This document shows positions 3,738 through 37,842 of a DNA stretch of 41,751 nt, piece by piece. The translations under genes were made by a program, and so were the position numbers. The notes under the pieces were generated by a model. That model was not told the DNA's origin. It was given only the letters and a program-made list of their open reading frames with translations, and made no database searches. How positions within the stretch are numbered: position 1 is the stretch's first letter; each line of letters opens with the position of its first letter. The stretch comes from Dimargaris cristalligena (lineage: Eukaryota), in NCBI GenBank assembly GCA_003614675.1, contig ML002324.1, positions 1 to 41,751 of the forward strand, in the 5' to 3' direction.

Positions 3738-6700
3738 CCGCTCTTCAATAATTTTCTTTTATTATCTATCAAACCATCAATATTATTGCTTCCTAGGTCC
3801 TCCACGACCTTTCCGATAGCGATCCCCGTCGTACTGCCATACCGGAACTTACTATTAAAGAAACTTCCGATACCTCAACTGAATCGATGCAGTACTCCAC
3901 CGTCAAGACATCTATTGCCGACGCCATGGCGAATATCACCGGGGGCGAGGGAGGCACGAACGCCGGCCTCAGTGACTCGGAGAGCTCTGGTGGCCGCAAG
4001 GATTTGATGGATGACCAGTCGTCCTCCGGCTCCACCCACAGTTCGCCGGTCCTTGTGACTGGCTCAGTGACTCCAGCGACTCAACTTATTCGTGCTTCAA
4101 CCTTCTCCTCCCCCCAATTACCCTCAGCCCGAACGTTCAGGTCTTCTCGTTCATCGCCGCGCCCGACCTTCTCGTCTATATCCCTGCCCATAACCTCAGT
4201 GACTACCGCCACTTTAACGGACTCGTTTGACCAAAAACGAGCTCACTCGGTGAGTGCCTCCGTCGTGACAAGCTCGACCCATTGGGAGCTGCAGTCCGAT
4301 TTTACTGGGCATTCCGAGGCACATGTCAATGAGATGGACCGCATGGTACCCGCTCCAGGTTCAACCTCGATGGACAGCAAAATGGACCGGCCAAGCCTCC
4401 CGGCGTTTTACGGAAGCCAACCCTTCTCCGGAAACCCCACCACCATTCTTCCGGTTAGTTCGGTTATTAACACCACCGAAATTACCGAAGTGAATGTCAC
4501 TGCTTCTCGCCCTGTTGGCCCTGCCTTCGGTTTCAGCGAATCAGTTGGTTTCAATGTCTCTGCGTCACTCCCGGTGACTAACACCACCGAAGTAACCGAA
4601 ATAAATATCACTGCACCAGCCCTGGTGAGCCCCACCGTCGGCTTCAGTGAATCCATCGGAATCAATATCAACTCCTCCGATTTCATTCATTCACACACCA
4701 ATAAAACTGAAGCCGCCGAAGCGAATATCTCAACCTCGCATTCAACCGACTCGGCCATTAGCACCAAGGCCCCGGTATCCTTCTCGGTTAGTCCGATCAC
4801 CGACCTTACCGATACCGTTGGGGTAAATATATCGGTCCCCTTCCCGGTCAGTTCCGCTATTGGCTTCTTGGAAACCCTGGCGAGCAATGTAGTTAACCGT
4901 TTCCCGGGTACTTCAAGCTCTAAGTCAACCGTGGAGAGTGAGACGAGCGAGGCAAATCTCGTTACCACCCATAGCTACGCCTCGGTTGTGAGTAACCAGA
5001 CTGGCCAAGCCGAAGTGTATATCCCTACTGTCGTGCGGGTCAGTGAATCGGCGATCACCCACACTGGCCAAACCGTTACGGACTCGATCATTCCTGTGAG
5101 CCTTGATGCGGCCATTGGATTCGGCGAAGCTGTCAAAACAAATATGAGCACTCTCGCCCAAGTCGGTGGCGCAATCATTGCCGAAACTGGCGCCGCCTAT
5201 ATTAGTGCTGCGACCCCCTATTTAGTTGACCAGTCTACTAGCAATATGCAGGCATCGCAAATTACCGTTGATGTCCCCTATCCCATTGGATCGATTGCCA
5301 GCATCGGTGGGGCCACAGACATGCATACTTCTACATCCTCGCATGTCAGGGATTCTTTCACTAGCCAAATCGAGGCTACTAATACCAATACCATGGCTTC
5401 GTATTCCACTAGCGCAATTGCAAGCGTTTCACAAGCATCGGAGGTCAGCGTCGATGCTCCCTATCAAATTGGCACTATTATCGATATTAGCGGGGCCACG
5501 GACATGCACACTTCTACGTCCTCTCATTTCAGGGACTCGGTCACTAGCCAAACCGGGATTACCAATATCAACATCACGGCACCGCATTCCACTTCCCATA
5601 CCATTAGCGAAACGCACGTGTCCGAGAATTATATCTCGGCTCCCTATCGAATCGGCACGCTTATCGGCGTCGGCGGATCCACTGATATGAAATACACTTC
5701 AGCATCGCGAGTCGGTGGTTCCCTTGTTACCGAGACCAATATTTCTAGTGACAATTCCACAGTCCCGTTTTCCACTCATCAGATTACAGGCGAAACACAG
5801 GGGTCTGAAATTAACGTCACAGCCCCCTATCGAATCGGTACAGTTGTTAACGTCGGCGGTGCCGCAGTTGTGGATACACATATGACTTCGCATATCAGGG
5901 ACTCGACCACTAGTCATACCGAAGAAGATGGCATCCACATTACCGCCCCGCACTCCACTATCCATTTTACAAATGATACACGCGTGTCAGAAACTGGCGT
6001 TGATATCCCCTATCGAATTGGCACAGTTATTGGTGTTGGTGGAGCTACGGACATGTACACTTCTACGATCTTGCATGCTACGGATTCGGTCACTAGCGAA
6101 ACCAAAATTATCAACATCAATCCCATGTCACCGCATTCCACCAGCCGGGTCACTAGCGAAACGCAAATAGCCGAAATTAATGACACGGCCCCCTATCGAG
6201 CTGGCGCGGTTGTCAGAGTCGGCGGCTCTACAGATATAAGTTACGCTTCATCCTCACACGCCAGCGGGTCGGTTATTCCGGACACCAATACTTCTGGAGT
6301 CAATATCACGGCCCCCCATCGAATTGGTACGGTGTTCAGTACTGGCGGTGCCACGGACATGCACACTTTGACGTCCTCTCATGCCAGGGACTCGATCACT
6401 AACCAAATCCAGAATACCAATCTCAATATTACGGCACCATACACTATTGGTCAGGCCACCGATGATACAAGGGTTTCGACAATCAGTGTCGATGTTCCCT
6501 ATCGGATCGGTACGGTTGTCGGCATCGGTGGAGCCAAGGAAATGGGTTACTCTTCAACTTCGTATATCAGCGGATCGGCTATTACCGAAACTGGTATTTC
6601 TGGTATTAATATCACGAGTCCGTATTCCCCCGGCCAGTCTGCCAGCGATTCCCGGATTTCGACAATCAGTGTTGATGGGCCCTATCGAGTTGGCACAGTT

Positions 6701-9700
6701 ACCGGAATAGGCGCTGCGAAAGACATGGGGTATATCTCGGCCTCGCATGCCACAAACTCGACCACTAGCCAAACCGAAGTTACCCATAAAAATACAACAT
6801 CATCGTATTCCGCTGGTCATATCTCAAGCAATACGCAAGGGTTGGAGATTGATATCACAGCCCCGTATCGGATCGGCACGGTCGTCGGTATTGATGGATC
6901 GGCTATTGCCGAAACTGGGGTTGCTATTACCAATACCACTGCCTCGTATTCCACTGACCAGACCACCAGTAATGCACGAGTGTCCGGGATAGGCATCGAC
7001 ATTCCCTATCGAGTTGGCACAGTTGCCAGTATTAGTGGAGCGAAGGATATGGGGTATATTTCGGCCTCACATGTCAGCGGGTCGGCTATTACCGACACTA
7101 ATACTTCTGGAGTCAATATCACGACCCCCTATCGAATTGGTACGGTTGCAGGTGCTGGTGGTGTAACGCACATGGATGCCACTGCGCCCTCTCATATCAG
7201 CGGATCAGCTATTACCGAAACCGGGGTTGCTAGTGTCAATACCACAACCCCGTATTCCACCAGTCAAACCGCCAGCGATACCCTGGTGTCGGGGATCTGT
7301 ATTGAAGTGCCCTATCGAGTCGGCACAGTTACCGGGATTGGCGGAGCGAAAAACATAAGTTATATTTCATCCTCGCATACCAGCGGATCAGTTATTACCG
7401 AGGACGATATTCCTGGAAGCAATAGCACGACCCCCCATCGTATTGGTACAGTTATTGGCGTCGGCGGTACCGCGGGCATGGATCCCACTTCATCCTCGCA
7501 TGTCAGAGACTCGATCACCAGCCAAATCCAGAATACTGGTACCAATATTACGGCACCGTACTCCACCAGCCAGGCCCTTAACGAAAATCGCATATGGGGG
7601 GTTAGCATCGATGCCCCTTATCGGATCGGCACGGTTATTGGTGTTGGCGGAGTCACTTATACAGATACCAGTACATCTTCACATATCAGGGACTCGATTA
7701 CAGGCCAAACCACTGCCACCAGTATCAGTATCACGGCACCGTACTCCTCCAGTCAGATAGCCAGCGAAACACATGTGTCAGAAATTAATTTTGATGCACC
7801 CTATCGAATTGGCACGGTCACCGGTATTGGCGGGACCACGTACACAGATACTAGTATGTCTTCACATATCAAGGACTCGATTACAGGCCAAACCGAGATT
7901 ATCAATGTTGATATCACAGCTCCGTATTCTATTGGCACGGATACCAGCGGTACATGGGTGCCGGGTATTGGTGTCGCTACCCCCAATCGGGCCGAATCAT
8001 CTTTGAGTCAAACTGACATCACTTTGGTCAGCTCTTCGGTTTCCACGACTGGTGGCCCGGCCTTTAGCATTGGTGGCAGTGCTGAGCTGAATATGGGCAC
8101 CTCCCGACCCTTAGGCCCGACCACTAGTCAGGCTGAAATTACTTCGGTAGCCGTATTGTCACCCACACCCTGTGGCCTGAGAATCCACGGTTACGGAAAT
8201 TCAGGAGCACACGTAAAGGATTCCCGCCCAGTAGGGTCGGTCAGCGGTCAAACCGAAACTATATCGGTGACTACCCATGGTCCTAAGCCCTGCGGTCCAG
8301 GCATCATTATCGGAGGCGACGTGAGATTTGATGTCGGATCTACTCACACGACGAGTTCCGTCGCTGACCAAACAGATATTACATATTTCAGTAGTTCGAC
8401 TCCCAAGCCCTGCGGTTCGGGTGTCATCATCGGAGGCGATATCAGATTCGGGACGGGAATTTCTCACTCCACGGGCTCCATTACAAACCAAACAGGTATC
8501 ATATCTGTGGGCGTTTCGACTTCTAAGCCCTGCGGCCTAGATCCCATTGTCGGGGACGATGTAAAATTCGGGGTTGGACATGCCCACTCGACGGGCTCCA
8601 TTATCAGTAAGACAGATACCATATCTATGGATATTTCAACCCCTGGGCCTGGAGGTTTTGGCGTTAGTGTCCATAGCAACGCTGGATTGAATAGTGACGG
8701 TCGTTACAATACAGGTTACGTACCCGGACCGACCAAAATCACCGTGGTTGATGCCTCACACCCCAAACCTACTCTCCCGCCTCGCCACTTCGGCGGATAC
8801 TCCGAAACCGAGTTGGACAACACCCACACGGTCGGGTTTATCACGAGCCATGGTGGAATTACGACGGCTACTGCTCCAAAATTCACTCCGTATAACCCAG
8901 GCCAGAGTGTATATGGCAGTGTAGGTGTAAATCCTGGCAGTTCGTATACCACGAGTTCAACCTTCTCCCAAACCGAGATTACGTCAATTAGCGCTGTGGC
9001 ACCAAGCCCATGTGGCCCGGATATTGCTGTTGCCGGAAACGCCGGTGCGAGTCTTGGTAATTCCCACGCTGCGGGATCCGTCACTAGCCAGACCAAGACT
9101 ACTTTAGTAGATAGCTTAAATTCCAAGCCTTGTGATCCAAAATTTGGCATTGGCGGCAGTGTGGATATTAATATTGGCAATACTAATTCGTCGAGTTCCG
9201 TTGTCAACCAGACAAGGACCACTTCGACGCACATTTCGACACCCAAGCATTGTGGACCGGGTTATAGTGCCGGCGGGGGTACGGGGCTGGATACTGGAAG
9301 TCCTCGTCCAGCTGGTATCATTGTTGGCCAAACCGAAATCACAACAATCAGTACGTCACCCTCCAAGCCGTGTGGCCCGAGTGTCGGTGCTGGTGCCCAC
9401 ATTGGATTGACCGGCAACGTTACTTACCCCAAGAGTTTGATCACTGGGCAGACCACCACTACTTCGGCCAATATCTCAACACCTCAAACCTGTGGGCCAC
9501 CTCGCCAATCTAGTGGGTACTTTTATTCGGGGACTGGAAAGCAGATTTCAATGGACTCGTCCGTAACGCAAACCGAGATTACTACGGTGAATATTGCTAC
9601 ACCCAAACCCAGTGGCCCAGGTTTTAATGCCAGCGGAAGTATCGGACTGAATACCGGGGGCACTCACAAAGCTGGATCCACCGCCACCCAAACCAAAATC

Positions 9701-12700
9701 AATACCGTTGGGGTCTCTAATCCCATATCTAGTCAGCCAGGAATTATTGGTGTTGGTGGTGGTAGCGGAGTAAACGTGGGTAGTCCTCACCCTACCCATT
9801 CGACGGTCAGCGAGGTTGGTATTACATTAATAGAAGCAACTGTGCCCATGCCATGCGGCCCGAAAACCAACGCAAGTGGACACATGCCCAGGGTTAGTTC
9901 TACCACACACTCCAATCGCCCGGCTATCCCTCACACCGACATGAGTACTGTGAGTGCTACTAACCCGGTACCTGGTGGTTTTGCCCTCGGTATTAGTGGA
10001 AATGCTGGCTTTAATTCCGGTAACTCCCATGCCGCTAACTCGGTTGGAAATCAGACGAGTTATTTTGATATTGGGGCCACCACTCCTATGCCCTGTGGAT
10101 CTAGTACGGGCTATAGTGGAAATGGTGGTGGAATAGTCGGGAACTCCCACCATACCCATTCGACCACAATTCAATATGGATTGGATACCATGGATATGCC
10201 TGCTCCCATGCCGTACAACTCAAGCCATGGAGTCGTCGCTCACATCCCTTTGGATGACAGTAACCTTCCCCCCGCTGGCACTGGCACTGGCGCCAGCCAA
10301 GCCGGCCAGATAGGGACTGGTACATCCGGTACTATACATGGTGGTCAAAATATTGGGTTCGGCAGTCATACAGAGCTGTATGGCAGAGCTCCACACCCTA
10401 ATGCACCAAACGCCGGTCCAAGCAGGTTGCCTCAAGGGAATTATACTCCGACCCATATGACAGCTGGCCCGAAGGTTGGCTTTGTCGAATACAGCGACGG
10501 GTACGTGCCTATGCCGACCCCTAGTCACCCCAATATCGGATTCAACGCCAATGTTAGCGGCGAAAGTACTACATCTCGGCCAGATACCCAAGATGCTAGT
10601 TATTCTGGCCATGTCAACACTACTATTTCGGCTAATATGCCCTGTGGTCCATCCATTGGATTTTCCGGGCAAACCAGTACAACCTCCAGTGTTTCGTATC
10701 CTCCCCTCATTACCGCCGGCCAACCTGGGCCTGCTGGCGTGCAAGTGTCGATGCCCATGCCCAAGACTGGCGAGTCGACTATCTACATCGATGGCCACAT
10801 TGAATCGAGCAGTGGCGGCTTCCACCCTGGTCGCACGGTTATCGGCCAAGCCGGTATCCCTACGTCTGATGTTCTCGGCCCCACCCCCTATAGTCAGACC
10901 ATCGGGTTCAGCGGGCAAGTCACCACATGCGACAGCACTTTGCGACCCATTTATCCGACCTCTGGCGTATCCGGTACCACCGGGGTGAACATATCTGCCA
11001 CCACTCCCTGTGGCCCATCCACCGGTTTCAACCAAACCTCGGGAATGAATAGCTGGACTTCTCATACTGTAGGCTCCTCTGTTAATCAGATTGAAGTCGC
11101 TGGTGTGAACGTTTCAAGTATGTCTAGTGGCTCCACCACCCTTGGCTTTAGCAGTCACACTGGTATGAATACCACTACACCACGCCCTGCTCACCCAACC
11201 TTAAACCGAGTCCCTCATTCCGAATATATTCCGGCCTTCCCTATCCTCTCGGGCCAGAACCTCGGTCTTGGTGGACAATGGGATATAAATGTTACGACAC
11301 CTCGCCCACCCCACCTCGCCGTTAGCCAAACGCACATTCCCGACCCGAGAGGGCCTATGCCTAGCTCAGGTGGAACAAACATTAATCTCAGCGGTTACGC
11401 CGGGGCGAGTACCGGGGGCCACCATTCCGTACAACCGATGGTCTCCCAGACTGAGATTACTACCGTGAACATTTCGACACCAAGCCCACATGGACTCATC
11501 CGCCAAGACAAGACCCGCATCAATGTGAGTGGTGGCACCCCCCACCCCACTGTCTATCAAACCAACACCTCTGGTATCAACGTAGGCGCGACTATGCCCA
11601 GTGGTCCTGGTCCAAACTGGAGTGGCCAGACCAATACAACCATTGGGGGAACTCATACCGTTCAACCAGCTTTTAGCCAGGCCGGAGCTTCCACGTTGAA
11701 TATCCCAGTCCCAGTCCCCGTACCGCAGGGCCCGGGCTTCACCCACAGCGGAAGCATCGAGATTAGAGATAACACTTCCCAGGCAAGCGTCAATTTAGCT
11801 ACGCCTATACCATACGGCCCTAACCACGGTTCTGGCGGACATGTTGGAGTAAGTGGCAGTGTACCTCTTCCCGGTTCCATATATACCAACCAGACCAACT
11901 CTACGACCGTTAACGTGACTACCCCCCAGGCATGTGGCTCGAGTACGGGACTCGGTGGACATTCAGGGGTGAGTGTTGGAGCTACTCGACCTGGGCATCC
12001 AACCACTGTTCACACTGATATTACATTAGTTAGCGGGACGACTCCTACATCAAATGGCCCGACCGTTAGTATCAGTGGTTCTTCTGGAGCAACTGGCCAT
12101 ATTCCACCCCATGGCGGACCCGCCATCGTACCACCGGGGTATATAGCCGTGGCAGCGCCTTCAAATACCCCATGTGGTCCGCCTCGCGACTTCGGTAATC
12201 ACGGTGGCATGACCGGGACAGTTCCCCAACCTGGTAACCCAGTTACGTATCAAAATACCCATGGTAGTGGTGGTGGCCCTATCCCCGGCCCCTATGGGCC
12301 AGTCCATGGCCCCAACGGACATTTTGGCGCAAGTGGCAATGTTCCACATCCCAACCATCCAAATACCCACCATACGGACATTTCAGGCGTGCATATCATC
12401 AACACCACATCCAGCGGCTCGGGTGGTAACTTTGCTGGTCATGCCGGAGTGAACGCGACTACCGTCGGACCTGGTCGACCTGCTCCCAGCCATTCCCTTA
12501 ATGTTGGAGCTAATTGGCCCAACCCTATGGCTCCCGGTTTTAACGGACAAGCTGGCGTGGGTGTCGGGGGATCCCACCAGCAATTCCACTCAACAGCCAA
12601 TCAGGCTGGAGTGCCGGGTATCAGTATGGGTGCCCCTATGCCCCATGGTCCACCTTTCAGCCACGGTGGAGACGCTGGGGTAAATATATCTGCACCAGGT

Positions 12701-13060
12701 CTCCCTCCCCAATATTTTTCCACGACCGTAGAAGCTAGTATGGCGTCTGAGGCGGAACATACCATAGAGCTACTACAGACCCAGATGATGGCGCTCAACG
12801 AGCGAATTGAAATGCTCCGACACGATGCCCACGAGCGAAACAACCGGATCGTACGTCGTATATCCACTTTACGGGTCATTTTGAAAGCCAACTTCAGCCG
12901 CTTTGTGGTTGGCATGATTATACTGGCGCTTGTCATACTATTCCCGTACTGGCGGCGAAAGCGTTGGGTCAACCTGTCGCTGGGTAAGATTCGGGGATTT
13001 ATACCGTTCCTGCTCAACTATTTCATGGGTAAGTTCCTAGACACAGTCGTGTTTTTTTAA
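2688..13060 (+). CDS. Giant ACBP-domain tail-anchored protein (Atg37/ACBD5-like architecture), long isoform join(2688..2960,3797..13060), about 3,178 aa
   Basis: Exon 1 encodes an ACBP domain (KLHLYALFKQATEGDC...KPAFFYAVARTRWEAWNGLRGQTKEQAQVRYI) and ends GAG|GTAAGC in phase 0. The acceptor CCTAG at 3792-3796 opens in phase 0 into the frame of the 3887..13060 ORF (VLHDLSDSDPRRT...ESMQYST). The C-terminus has a coiled-coil-like segment (EHTIELLQTQMMALNERIEMLR), a hydrophobic helix (FVVGMIILALVILFPY) and a basic cluster (WRRKR). Confidence 0.75.
4445..12700 (+). repeat. Coding tandem-repeat array, roughly 60 degenerate units of 40, 41 or 61 aa, rich in Ser/Thr/Gly/Pro/Ile
   Basis: PYRIG-type anchors at 5276, 5459, 5642, 5825, 6008, 6191, 6314, 6497, 6680, 6863, 7004, 7127, 7310, 7433, 7616, 7799, 7922 (spacings 183 or 123 nt, one of 141). 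A PCG-type anchor position (motif degenerate in some units) recurs at an exact 120-nt period from 8168 to 9728 and continues with small indels to about 12650. Confidence 0.92.
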
Positions 13061-32264: not shown

Positions 32265-34014
32265 GTTGGCCGACTGCCGGGTTGGGTCAGCACCAAGGCC
32301 CTATCCACATTCGTTACGGTTTGTTCGCCTCCATCCCCACTAAGACTTCTTTACCTTGTCGTTATCGACATTTTTAGCATTAGTACACCCACTATCTATC
32401 CCACATTTACCAATAGCATCTCTGTTTAAGGCATGTTTTACATAAGAGTTTTCAATACAGGTGGGTATCTAATATACTGCCCATTCATCGCAGCGAAATT
32501 CATTCAATTATCAGTTGGGTACTCAATATGGTTGGCATATCTATCCCAATTTTTGTTTACACATTTTTCCAATAAATACATTTGTAGTTTAAATTTAACA
32601 TGTAGATACTGAAAATAAGCATAAATAGCTTTCTTGTTTAAGTAATCTGATCAAATGGAGTAGATGGTCATATCGACAGGGTGTAACATAGGTATTATGT
32701 AAATTGGAAGTGTTCGGCGTCGGAAGCTATTACTATCCAGTCGGAGTGGGATTTAAGTAGTCATATAGAAACCTGTGGTAGATTTTAGATGCAGTAGGGC
32801 ATGTTTTCTTGGCTATGTTGACGTTTCTTGGTTAGTTTTTGTTTAAAAAATGATGGGTAAATATCCCGGCTTTTGAAATATCCGTAAAATGGACACTCCG
32901 CCTGCCCATGAAAATTCGAAGTGTGGTTACCGGTAGAAGCTCCGGATTAGAAATATAAATAATGAAACACATCAGCGGTAAACTGCACAGTAAACCCACC
33001 CTAAGAGGAGTATAGGTGAAGCGAAACTCAATCTCGTGGTGTTGAAACGAAATACAAAGGAAAATACCCTTTAAACTAATTGCGCCCTGTCTTGCTAAAC
33101 GGAACATTCGGTATATAGCCAGGTAGAGGCCCACCCATATGCTACTGGACTTCCGAAATGGTCCATTAAAATTCTTGGCGTTAAATATATGAATAGACAA
33201 TAGAATTGGATTCTATATGTATAAAAGTCGAGTCGGGCTAAACTATAAGCGCCCAAATGTCTATTTTATGGGCACAAGAAGACTCTTTTCATATTATAGT
33301 CGAGTGTCTTGAATAGGCCGAATAGAACGTAAATAAGGCAACACTAACTTTACACCATATATACTCGTAAAACTCAAAGCGGCCAGAACTCCATGCGCTC
33401 AGTTTTTCTTCCTATTTATAAGGATATCGCCGTATTCCATGTATATATATAATTAAACTCTTATATTATGCAATAGAAATGGGGTTGAAAGCCCCAGTGA
33501 TTTTCCTTAGTCGGAAACCCGATTTCTTTATTATTTATAAAAGACAGTCAAGCGGGTGGTTGTTAATGCTGGCCTATGTATTCCGAGACTGTTACTTATG
33601 ATTACGATCAATTCCATACATTGTAAGATATATTTTCGTACAGTTGAGAGGCCATTCTCACAATAGGCACACCGGCTTCTAGTAAACCCGATCACGTGAT
33701 ATGTGAAGTATGGCTCACTGGCTCGGGGTTGCTTCGAGATCACGGCTCACTATTATTTTTTTTCGCATTTATTACTATAGGCATTGGCTCACCATGAAGA
33801 ATTTCACATTAAAAGAGATTCCCGTCGCACATTACCAAGTCGAAAACTTCTCGAAATTGGTGACCTTACCACCACAACAGTATTGCAACTGAGTTGGCTG
33901 TTCATACTCTATTTTTTTATACCTCATTTCTTGGAATTGACTAACCAGTAGGGCCTCCATTTCCGCATTTCACCCTTTTCTCACCGCACACGCCCATTCA
34001 GCCAATTGCCCACC

Positions 34015-37000
34015 ATGAGCGAGTCGATAAACCAGGACCTGCAACGGAACAAGTCGCAGTTGTTTGTTCGCAGCCTTCCATACGATGCCACTTCCGAGAT
34101 AAGTACCTTCCCGGGTTTAGCCCGACACTAATTTATGCGTTCCCGGCCCATAGAGGGCTGGGGCGTGTATGGTTTAATGAAAAATACCTGCTGGCTCAAT
34201 TCTCCTCTGCCCGCCCACCTCCAGCCTAAAACTCCCGTATTTACCTTGATATATATTATATGGTTGGTCTTTGATAACCCCTAATCCCCCGGACACCTCT
34301 GTTTTTTGATTGGCCGAATTACGAGCTGGAGGCCTTTTTTAACGAAATCGGTCCAACCAAATCCTGCTTCGTCGCCACCGATAGCACCAAGTTCGATGCC
34401 CAAGGCAACACCCTTAACAAAGGCTACGGCTTTGTCCAATTGTAAGATTATATGGGTCTACTGGTGGTCACCTTGTTTTATGAAATTTGAAGTTCGTCTG
34501 GCACTAGATTCATTTTTTCGGTATTGGACTTGATTCGATATTGTCAGTCACCCGGACTATCAGAAACTGACCCGATAAAAACTGCTGGCTATTGCTAACT
34601 ACTTTAACATATATATATATATATATGTATATATATAACTATTTTGTCTGAAACCATAGCGCCTTGCCTGAAGATGCCGAGAGAGCCATTACTGAGCTAC
34701 CCCAAAAGTTATTTAATAACAAGCGTAAGCTTAAGATTGAATTTGCCATTACCCGGTCCCGTAATGATAATCAGGACGAACACGCCCGATTGGTAAAGCA
34801 GTCAATTGAAGGTAAGTTTCTATAACATCCACAGTCGATCCCCCCCATTATTATTGCCTTCAGTTGCCAGTCCCTGGTTTCTATACATCAACCAAATGCA
34901 AAACAGTAGAAACAAGTATCATAGATTGGTCTTGGAAACGGTTGACTAATTCGGCCTGACGACTTGATAATTCCCTTTTTACTAATCCTAACCTTTAAGA
35001 TGGTCGTATGGCCAAGAAGGTACATTCTAACAAAGCCCGGAAGGAAACGTAAGTAAATCTCCAACCCTCCTTGCACCGACATCTTTCGCATACTAGTCTT
35101 GGTTGTGGCCTTGTAGATCATCATCTTGCTTCATTTATCAAACCATATCGAAATATCCCTTGAACACACCTATCCCTCCTTAGCGTTAACTCGGAACAGA
35201 AAAATTGGAAAACACCTACCCAAGTTATTATTGTGCGCGGTATACCCGCCGGGGTTACTAAAAAGGAAATCTTCAAGAAGGCCAAGAAGTTCGGTAAACC
35301 CCAAAATATTAAGTTCCCCTACGATCTACCTGCCGGTTCCACGACCGAGGCCTCCGACAAATCCGTGACGGGCCAATCAGGTAAATAAGCCGCCGTAGTT
35401 TTTCTCGTTTATGCCGAAACTTGCCACCTGATTTAATGTAAATTGATTGCCATTTGTCAACTCACGCTAATGTCATCCACACTTGGATTATACTGCGACT
35501 TTTACCCTGTATAATTTATTCATACACCCCCTATTGTCTATTCTCTCCTTACTTGTTTTTGTCATTTGTAGCCCTGATCTTCTATACCACCCTCCCCGAG
35601 GCCCGCAAAGCCCGCCATTCCCTGCACGACCACGTGTTCAAAGGGTCTAAGCTGGTCGCCGAATTCGCGCGGTATGCCAAAAAAGATGGGCGTGTTATTG
35701 TGCACAACCTCGCTTTCAACACCGCGGCTGACGACGTGCGCAAACATTTCAGTCCGTTCGGTATGGTGGTCGATGTGAACATCCTCCTGAACAAGGAGAA
35801 GGCCCGGTCCAACGGGGTTGCGTTTGTTCATATGGGTACGGTGGAAGAGGCCCAGTGGGCCATTGAAAAACTCAACGGATCTACCTTGCAGGGTCGCCTG
35901 ATTGCGGTCGACATGGTCGTTTCGAAAGAGGAACATGAGAAGCGCCAGTTAACGGAGCTAATGGACGACGATGATGATGATGATGACGATGACAATGCTG
36001 ATGCCGACGGTGACGACGTGGATGAGGCAGAAGCCGAGGCCGAGCAAGAGAGTGATAGCGAGGATGAAGCCACGCCATCGAAGAACAGCCCTGGCCAGGA
36101 AGGGTCCCAGAAAACCGAGGCTGCTTCCAAGGTCGTGGAATCCTCCGCTGAGCAGACGGACGCCGCCAAGAAGAAGCCCGTCACCTCGACTCGCCTCAAC
36201 AGTACCGTGTTCATTCGCAATTTATCCTACGAGGAAACGGAAGCCACCCTCCACGAACACTTCCTCCGATTCGGTCCCATCCGCCACGCCCTCATCACGC
36301 GGGACAAACTAACCAATAATTCGCTGGGAACGGGATTCGTCTGCTTCGAACACCCCGAAGTAGCCGAGCTGTGTGTCCAGCAGGCCGCCTTCGCCAACGG
36401 CCAGGCCAACACCCAAATGGCCGAGTTTTTCATCAAGCCCGGCCGATTACCCCCGGCCTATAAGAGTGTCTTGGAACCCGAGGTATCCCAGTCCTACCCG
36501 GACATCCAGAACTTCATGCTTCACGGCCGTTTGGTCACGGTGGACATTGCTGTGGACCGCAAGGAAGCCACCCGCCTGCGGGAGGCCAAGTCGAGCCGCC
36601 CCCATAATGACAAGCGGAACCTCTACTTGCTCCAGGAAGGCGCCCTGCCGGTTGACTCCCCCTTGGCCGCGGTGCTAGGGCCCGCTGAATTCGGTAAGCG
36701 CCAGGACTCGTACGCCAAACGTCGGGCGGATCTTACGAACAACCCCAACCTCATGATTTCGCGCACCCGTCTGGCCATCCGCAATGTCCCTGCTGAATGG
36801 GACGACGGTATGATCCGCCGCGCCGCGCTAACCGCCGTGGCGGAATTCAAAAAGGCCGTCGCCAAGGGCGACCAGGCCCCCCTTTCGCCGACGGAAAAAA
36901 GTGAAGGTGGGTGGGATCATCTGCCCCGCCTGAAACAGGCCATCATTAACCGCGAAACGATCCAGATTGACCCCAAAACGAACCTGGGCCGGTCGCGGCG

Positions 37001-37842
37001 GTCGGCGTTTGTGGAATTCGTCGACCATTCCCATGCATTGGCCGCCCTGCGGTACTTGAACAATAACCCCACCGTGTTCACCAAGACCCAGCGGCCCATC
37101 GTCGAGTTTGCCATTGATAAGAAGACCGTCATGTTGTTGCGGGAAAAACGTATCGAGCGGTCAACGGCGGCGATTCAGGCGAAGCAAGCCGACCAGAATC
37201 AGGGTCAGGGTCAGGGTCAGGGCCAGAAGCAGAACCGGAACTCGATCTCAAAGCCGGAGACTAAGCCCAGAATGGGTATGGATGGTCCCGGAAAGGCGGC
37301 CCAGGCCAAGCGCAAGGGTAACCACAAGAGTGATGACACCGAGTCCCCCCGGAAACGGCCGAATAATGGGGATGGCAAGCCAGGGGCTAACCGCAATGGA
37401 CGTCCGCAGCGCGATGCGAAACCCGAGCATAAGTCCCGGTCGGCCAAACCCGGCCAGGCAGGTGATAGACCCCAAGCCTCTAAACGCGAAACTAATCGGT
37501 CGGAGGTAAGTTCCGAAAACGGTTGCCTAATGGCGCTAAACCGATTTGACAGTGATAGTGGTGGTGGCTGTGGGGCTATATACGTGTTATTCGCATTTGG
37601 TCACAATAAGTTCGGCCCACAGCCAATTGCCTGTTCTTTGTAAGAGAACATGTGAAGGGGGATATCTGGCCAATAGTAACCCCGATCCCTCGTTTTCCAT
37701 GGCATTGCTATTAACATCACTGTTTATTTCTGATTGATTTACCAACCTATTTTAGAAGCCGAAACATACGTCCGAGAACAACTCATCCGACGCCTTCAAA
37801 GCTGCCAAGGATTTGATCAAGAATGCCCTCAAGAGCGCTTAA
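34015..37842 (+). CDS. NOP4: Nucleolar multi-RRM 60S biogenesis factor Nop4/RBM28, join(34015..34098,34323..34441,34660..34811,35000..35048,35184..35380,35572..37505,37756..37842), 873 aa
   Basis: RRM1 LFVRSLPYDATSE|ELEAFFNEIGPTKSCFV...NKGYGFVQFALPEDAERA; further RRMs; acidic tract; STVFIRNLSY; DKRNLYLLQEG; NPNLMISRTRLAIRNVP; AFVEFVDHSHALAALRYLNNNP...RPIVEFA. Exon phases are consistent. Intron 1 requires AT-AC termini. Confidence 0.92.
34099..34322 (+). other. Non-canonical AT-AC intron, 224 nt (NOP4 intron 1)
   Basis: GAG|ATAAGTAC ... CCCTAATC ... GTTTTTTGATTGGCCGAATTAC|GAG. No AG dinucleotide between the in-frame stop at 34275 and 34322. Confidence 0.75.

Follow-up and report, generated by a model that had tools for sequence, protein, structure and literature searches.

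A probable U2-type AT-AC intron in the NOP4/RBM28 orthologue of the early-diverging fungus Dimargaris cristalligena

Most eukaryotic introns with AT-AC termini are U12-type (PMC10639083, PMC7072748), with a donor of the form /ATATCCTT, a branch site resembling TCCTTAAC and a terminal AC. A second class with the same termini, the U2-type (or type II) AT-AC introns, is very rare. In a survey of five species it made up about 0.003% of introns, with 15 examples in human, six in mouse, three in fly and none in worm or Arabidopsis amongst about 610,000 introns; the introns of human SCN4A and SCN5A and of human and fly TAF2 are members (PMC1557818). The consensus donor published for this class is /ATAAGT (PMC5029451; PMC1557818). 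It has also been reported, for U2-type introns of yeast and human, that a change of the first base from G to A is rescued, less efficiently, by a change of the last base from G to C (PMC1557818). Here we describe an intron in a stretch of DNA from Dimargaris cristalligena, a complete contig of 41,751 bp (hereafter the window), which carries an orthologue of NOP4/RBM28 at 34015-37842 on the + strand. The first intron of this gene, at 34099-34322, is in our judgement likely to be a genuine U2-type AT-AC spliceosomal intron, excised at exactly 34098^34323. It appears to belong to a known, very rare class and not to be a new kind.

The resemblance to the SCN4A, SCN5A and TAF2 introns lies in the termini, the /ATAAGT donor and the lack of U12 motifs. 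Unlike SCN4A and SCN5A, the Dimargaris intron lies in an early-diverging fungus and in a gene of ribosome biogenesis; splicing by the major spliceosome has been shown for those genes, whereas here we infer that the major spliceosome makes the junction 34098^34323. With U12-type AT-AC introns the likeness is confined to the terminal dinucleotides, the donor and branch motifs being different and the branch candidate lying 38 nucleotides (nt) from the 3' end. Engineered and mutant U2-type introns of yeast and human that start with A and end with C (cited by PMC1557818 and PMC5029451) follow the same logic of compensation, but they are laboratory-made and less efficient, whereas the Dimargaris sequence is a natural allele with identical termini in the contigs of two studies.

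Closer in phylogeny are the non-U12 AT-AC introns of zygomycetes, of which sets defined by expressed sequence tags contain three in Rhizopus oryzae and 31-32 in Phycomyces blakesleeanus (Bartschat and Samuelsson 2010, PMC2846911, Table 2). These also come from early-diverging fungi, but in the sections of that paper drawn on here they are counted and not individually described. The nested AT-AC intron of Saccharomyces cerevisiae RPL30 (Gould et al. 2016, PMC5029451) likewise combines a fungus with a ribosome-related gene; it is, however, a side product at 1-2% with a donor unlike /ATAAGT, whereas the Dimargaris donor is the consensus and AT-AC excision would be the sole route to the full protein. 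Some non-U12 AT-AC introns have been hypothesised in fungal xylanase genes (PMC1557818). U2-type AT-AC introns are amongst the rarest classes, with few examples outside animals, and the fungal cases in the literature that we found are, in the portions of those papers used here, either hypothesised or counted only. The Dimargaris intron would be a clean natural fungal case, with a consensus /ATAAGT donor in an essential conserved domain and the same termini in two sequenced isolates, and the junction can be fixed from protein conservation alone because the donor sits in such a domain.

The host gene was modelled from reading frames and splice signals as seven exons and six introns, encoding a protein of 873 residues with four RRMs. 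The protein has 165 homologues at E<=0.001, the source names of which include ‘nucleolar protein 4’ and ‘RNA-binding protein 28’, and by sequence it would be the nucleolar, multi-RRM orthologue of yeast Nop4 and human RBM28; the gene is single-copy-looking. Exon 1 (34015..34098) begins with the ATG at 34015, a start codon common to the deposited protein model KAJ1986213.1, and encodes 15 N-terminal residues followed by RNP2 and loop 1 of RRM1, LFVRSLPYDATSE. Its final codons, ACT TCC GAG, end at 34098. Exon 2 (34323..34441) opens GAG CTG GAG and carries alpha-1, beta-2 and the first part of RNP1 from the same domain; alone, it matches positions 14-45 of the Pfam RRM_1 profile (E 0.00058). By count, the 13 residues of LFVRSLPYDATSE occupy profile positions 1-13, with exon 2 beginning at position 14.

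Intron 1 (34099..34322) is 224 nt long, in phase 0. Its 5' splice site, ATAAGT (34099..34104), follows exonic GAG and is U2-type except for the A at +1. The five other introns of the gene are canonical GT-AG introns with the donors GTAAGA, GTAAGT (three times) and GTAAAT, and the local donor consensus rests on these five because a heuristic based on the flanks of open reading frames, applied to GT-AG and AT-AC introns of neighbouring genes, gave mostly false pairs inside long reading frames and was dropped. A candidate branch site, CTAAT (34281..34285, with the branch A at 34284, 38 nt from the intron end), is followed by the pyrimidine-rich run CCTCTGTTTTTT (34296..34307), which is an ordinary major-type layout; the A of a second YTRAY candidate, TTGAT, lies 13 nt from the end. 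The intron closes with TTAC (34319-34322), the terminal AC being at 34321..34322. The initial annotation of this DNA, made from the sequence alone, had claimed that joining 34098 to 34323 gives an RRM1 that reads LFVRSLPYDATSE|ELEAFFNEIGPTKSCFVATD, and this is so. It was also correct that the donor is that of the local introns (three of the five) with the G at +1 changed to A, that CTAAT is present at 34281-34285, and that retention of the intron meets a stop, read-through giving ISTFPGLARH and then an in-frame TAA (34129..34131). The GT at 34103, which it had set aside for want of a compatible AG, does lack one in frame, its sole in-frame partner of the right length ending in GC (34103-34326).

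The word ATAAGT occurs 17 times in the window against 21 expected, i.e. without enrichment, so that the signal in intron 1 is the position of this word and not its abundance; GTAAGT occurs 23 times against 16.5 expected, a count reached in five of 100 shuffles. Rfam gave no match over the whole window at the gathering threshold and none at E<=1 over 33900-35600, and therefore no snoRNA (small nucleolar RNA) or other known RNA lies in intron 1.

The junction itself was judged from protein conservation. A profile of RRM1 was built from 115 orthologues (119 non-self proteins, of which 117 had a match and 115 passed a position filter). The AT-AC product scored 93.6 bits against it, and the two deposited protein models scored 61.4 (KAJ1986213.1; P0138) and 30.4 bits (RKP38846.1; P0001). 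An exhaustive scan combined donors at 34030-34134 with acceptors at 34200-34399; amongst the 4,174 pairs that were in frame and stop-free, AT-AC 34099-34322 ranked first (94.2 bits) and, of the 25 best pairs, was the only one whose termini are known to undergo splicing. Restricted to GT-AG, GC-AG and AT-AC pairs, the runners-up were GC-AG 34120-34325 at 82.0 bits and GT-AG 34066-34325 at 62.1 bits. RNP2 and the G-P motif are separated by 16 residues in 104 of the 106 orthologues matched by a regular expression, nine of the 115 having failed to match and been excluded, and by 16 again in 40 of 41 matched amongst 45 further proteins (four unmatched), the exception being a poly(A)-binding protein. 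The AT-AC product has a spacing of 16. Since both the profile score and this spacing fit, the protein requires an intron of exactly 224 nt at 34099, and AT-AC would be the only pair of ends, of those known to be accepted by spliceosomes, that yields this length.

The same measurements bear on the acceptor. An AG at 34324..34325, in frame and only 3 nt beyond the AC, is a normal acceptor, and joining the donor at 34099 to it would make an AT-AG intron with a product reading ...TSE|LEAFF..., one residue shorter. That product is in frame and stop-free and reaches 85.5 bits, but this is 8 bits below the AT-AC product and needs a gap; exon 2 enters the RRM_1 profile at position 14 if read from 34323 and at 15 if read from 34326, exon 1 supplying 13 residues; and the resulting spacing of 15 is found in none of the 106 and 41 matched proteins. 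Moreover, what rescues an A at +1 is a last-base C and not a G (PMC1557818). We therefore regard an AT-AG junction as quite unlikely.

The deposited models provide a further alternative. KAJ1986213.1 (861 residues) joins a GT within exon 1 (GTTCGC, 34066..34071) to the AG at 34325, and so loses VRSLPYDATSEE, 12 residues that include most of RNP2. It could be that this canonical junction is the correct one and that the protein simply lacks VRSLPYDATSEE: the termini are GT-AG, the frame is kept and the model stands in a public record. However, it deletes most of RNP2 together with loop 1, at a cost from 93.6 to 61.4 bits; the 33 nt that it treats as intronic would have to encode a conserved motif in frame by accident; and GTTCGC resembles the local donors only weakly, with T at +3 and C at +4 against A at both positions in all five other introns of the gene. 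This makes it very unlikely that the deposited junction is right. RKP38846.1, a partial model of 576 residues, opens FDWPNY|ELEAFF, in which the last 18 nt of intron 1 are read as protein and exon 1 is absent. The initial annotation had foreseen that gene predictors would mis-model the locus, and both records are indeed wrong at RRM1, because predictors permit only GT-AG and GC-AG introns. The practical gain is a corrected NOP4 model of 873 residues.

Several observations weigh against the AT-AC assignment. The profile does not distinguish the junction from those that also remove 224 nt but are displaced by 1-4 nt, which score 89.6-93.9 bits, and only the termini and the donor word set AT-AC apart from these. 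No richness in pyrimidines is seen in the 15 nt ahead of the AC, GATTGGCCGAATTAC, and only 3 nt downstream there is an in-frame AG. It is from protein conservation that the junction 34098^34323 in the messenger RNA is inferred. To pass from GT-AG to AT-AC, an essential gene would have to change twice; amongst the closest relatives found, the orthologue models are undisturbed at the site, and no relative confirms the AT-AC state. Lastly, we found no literature that pairs Dimargaris with ‘minor spliceosome’ or ‘U12’. As to the shifted junctions, whose termini are TA-CG, AG-TT, GA-TA and so on, we know of no precedent for the splicing of such ends.

Errors in the terminal bases would also have mimicked an AT-AC intron, and the initial annotation had pointed to A34099 and C34322 as the bases to examine in reads. 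The comparison was made on DNA contigs of four runs over 4.5 kb, representing at most three samples and two studies: X1, X2 and X3 belong to one study, possibly the source of the window, and X5 to a second. Contigs of all four runs span 33500-34598, and none differs at either base, the word depths that support the identical termini in the two studies being 155-324. So far as contigs show, the terminal bases are real and no product of assembly error; since contigs lose rare variants, this agreement concerns the main allele, and a minor allele is possible. X5 has eight listed differences in the 4.5 kb, including 34255 (inside intron 1), 34400 (in exon 2) and 34502; five are coding, and because four of these five are synonymous the gene is under constraint. 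These data bear on the possibility that intron 1 is not removed at all, as it might be in a decaying gene or if the termini reflect a shared artefact of sequencing or a minor allele; the loss of rare variants from contigs leaves some room for this. Against it stand the same termini at those depths in two studies, the predominance of synonymous differences between strains, the otherwise intact exons over 873 codons with five canonical introns, and the near-universal occurrence of NOP4 orthologues amongst the fungi found. We consider non-removal extremely unlikely.

It remains to be asked which machinery would remove the intron. Against TAAGT at +2 to +6 the donor GAG/ATAAGTA shows no mismatch, and against the U12 motif TATCCTT at +2 to +8 it shows five in seven; it reads ATAAGTAC where a U12-type donor would read /ATATCCTT. 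In a U12-type intron the branch site lies about 10-26 nt from the 3' splice site. The best match to TCCTTRAC in the last 45 nt of intron 1 differs at three positions and is 37-38 nt away from the 3' end, the GT-AG introns of the gene having two or three mismatches to the same motif, and no TCCTTAAC-like site is found close to the 3' splice site. The intron thus has what defines the U2-type AT-AC class, namely AT-AC termini, a U2 consensus donor except at +1 and no U12 donor or branch motif. It should be noted that Sheth et al. (2006, PMC1557818) asked, for this class, that a donor with A at +1 reach a U2 position weight matrix score of 75 or more, whereas the donor here was judged by word match. 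The claim of the initial annotation that the signals are of the major-spliceosome type is supported by the sequence, which has an /ATAAGT donor, no U12 5' motif and no properly placed U12 branch motif.

The same junction might nevertheless be made by the minor, U12-dependent spliceosome from degenerate signals, or the intron might be a hybrid open to either machine. That most AT-AC introns are U12-type is in favour of this, as is the retention of the minor system by some early-diverging fungi; 249 minor introns have been called in Basidiobolus meristosporus, which is assigned to the same phylum (PMC10639083). Hybrid intron classes have also been described (PMC11347168). On the other hand, the five donor mismatches and a branch match no better than in the GT-AG introns speak against it, as does the pronounced loss that minor introns underwent in the Zoopagomycota ancestor, reported by Larue and Roy, the main text of whose paper does not name D. 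cristalligena (PMC10639083). Rfam gave no match to the minor small nuclear RNAs U11, U12, U4atac and U6atac in the window, which covers only 42 kb, and amongst literature pairing RBM28 with a minor intron nothing apparently related was found. We consider minor-spliceosome or hybrid splicing unlikely. The U12 donor word RTATCCTT occurs three times in the window against 3.3 expected. Of these three, the one nearest the gene is an exact ATATCCTT at 33420-33427 on the - strand, 600 bp upstream of the gene, in AT-rich DNA free of open reading frames.

If the major spliceosome is responsible, GAG/ATAAGTA would be read by U1 and U6 at all consensus positions but +1, and a YTRAY branch site lying upstream of the pyrimidine run would pair with U2. 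The second step would see the first-position A pair with the last-position C, in place of the usual G-G contact. The AC ending at 34322 would be used over the AG 3 nt downstream because the A at +1 is rescued by a last-base C. Two other explanations were set aside by reasoning: a stwintron, as an A at +1 on the exon boundary is not repairable by removing an internal intron, and adenosine-to-inosine editing of +1, as the C at the last position is not convertible to G. Splicing of the IRE1 or transfer RNA type was likewise considered and set aside.

How such an intron arose may be approached through its relatives. In the B. meristosporus model (P0009) a 13-residue insertion, IPRISNDLVFFLY, occupies residues about 43-55 at the exact site of the Dimargaris intron, between ...KNE and ELESFF, and is missing from the model of B. 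ranarum (P0121). It probably marks an unrecognised intron in the B. meristosporus record, and such a pattern is what one would expect if a non-canonical intron there had gone unrecognised. The first codon of IPRISNDLVFFLY must be ATH and the last TAY; because the codons that follow spell neither ATATCC nor ATAAGT, the insertion is only a hint of an old non-canonical intron. The model of Tieghemiomyces parasiticus, the closest relative found, is undisturbed at the site, and so are the Kickxellales models found, except for one N-terminally partial model; at that place these organisms therefore either lack an intron or have a canonical one. One conceivable, if doubtful, history is that intron 1 is the fossil of a U12-to-U2 conversion, an ancient phase-0 AT-AC minor intron in RRM1 whose termini would have been kept while its donor and branch site came to resemble those of the major type as the minor spliceosome was disappearing from the lineage. 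The ideas of a converted U12 intron and of a rate-limiting regulatory intron, both raised in the initial annotation, have no direct support. Were the origin traceable, the way in which AT-AC ends appear or persist in introns of the major type might be read from the genomic loci of Tieghemiomyces, Coemansia and Basidiobolus.

The remainder of the gene is conventional. Intron 2 (34442..34659, GTAAGA...AG, 218 nt) holds a (TA)n run, a microsatellite at 34599-34644 around which the contigs of all four runs break, ending at 34598 and resuming at 34645, and which the contig comparison skipped as repetitive. Exons 3 (34660..34811) and 4 (35000..35048) agree with KAJ1986213.1; exon 5 (35184..35380) encodes the first part of RRM2, exon 6 (35572..37505) the remainder of RRM2 with RRM3 and RRM4 (three RRM_1 stretches in the Pfam search, E 8.7e-37), and exon 7 (37756..37842) ends with the stop codon TAA. 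Downstream of exon 2 the exon boundaries are independently confirmed, because the modelled protein there equals KAJ1986213.1 apart from two substitutions. One of these, N342D, falls within a run of Asp codons (35958-36009, + strand), which, like a Gly-Gln repeat (37189-37251, + strand), was passed over as a repeat in the contig comparison. RKP38846.1 departs from the model in two further places, a jump from ...CFVATDST to ALPEDAERAIT that loses RNP1 of RRM1 and one from ...VKQSIE to GSKLVAEFARY that loses exons 4-5 and the start of exon 6, i.e. RRM2. Elsewhere in the window, an uninterrupted open reading frame of 3,057 amino acids (3887-13060, + strand) has no Pfam family at E<=0.001 and is very large for a protein in which no domain is recognised.

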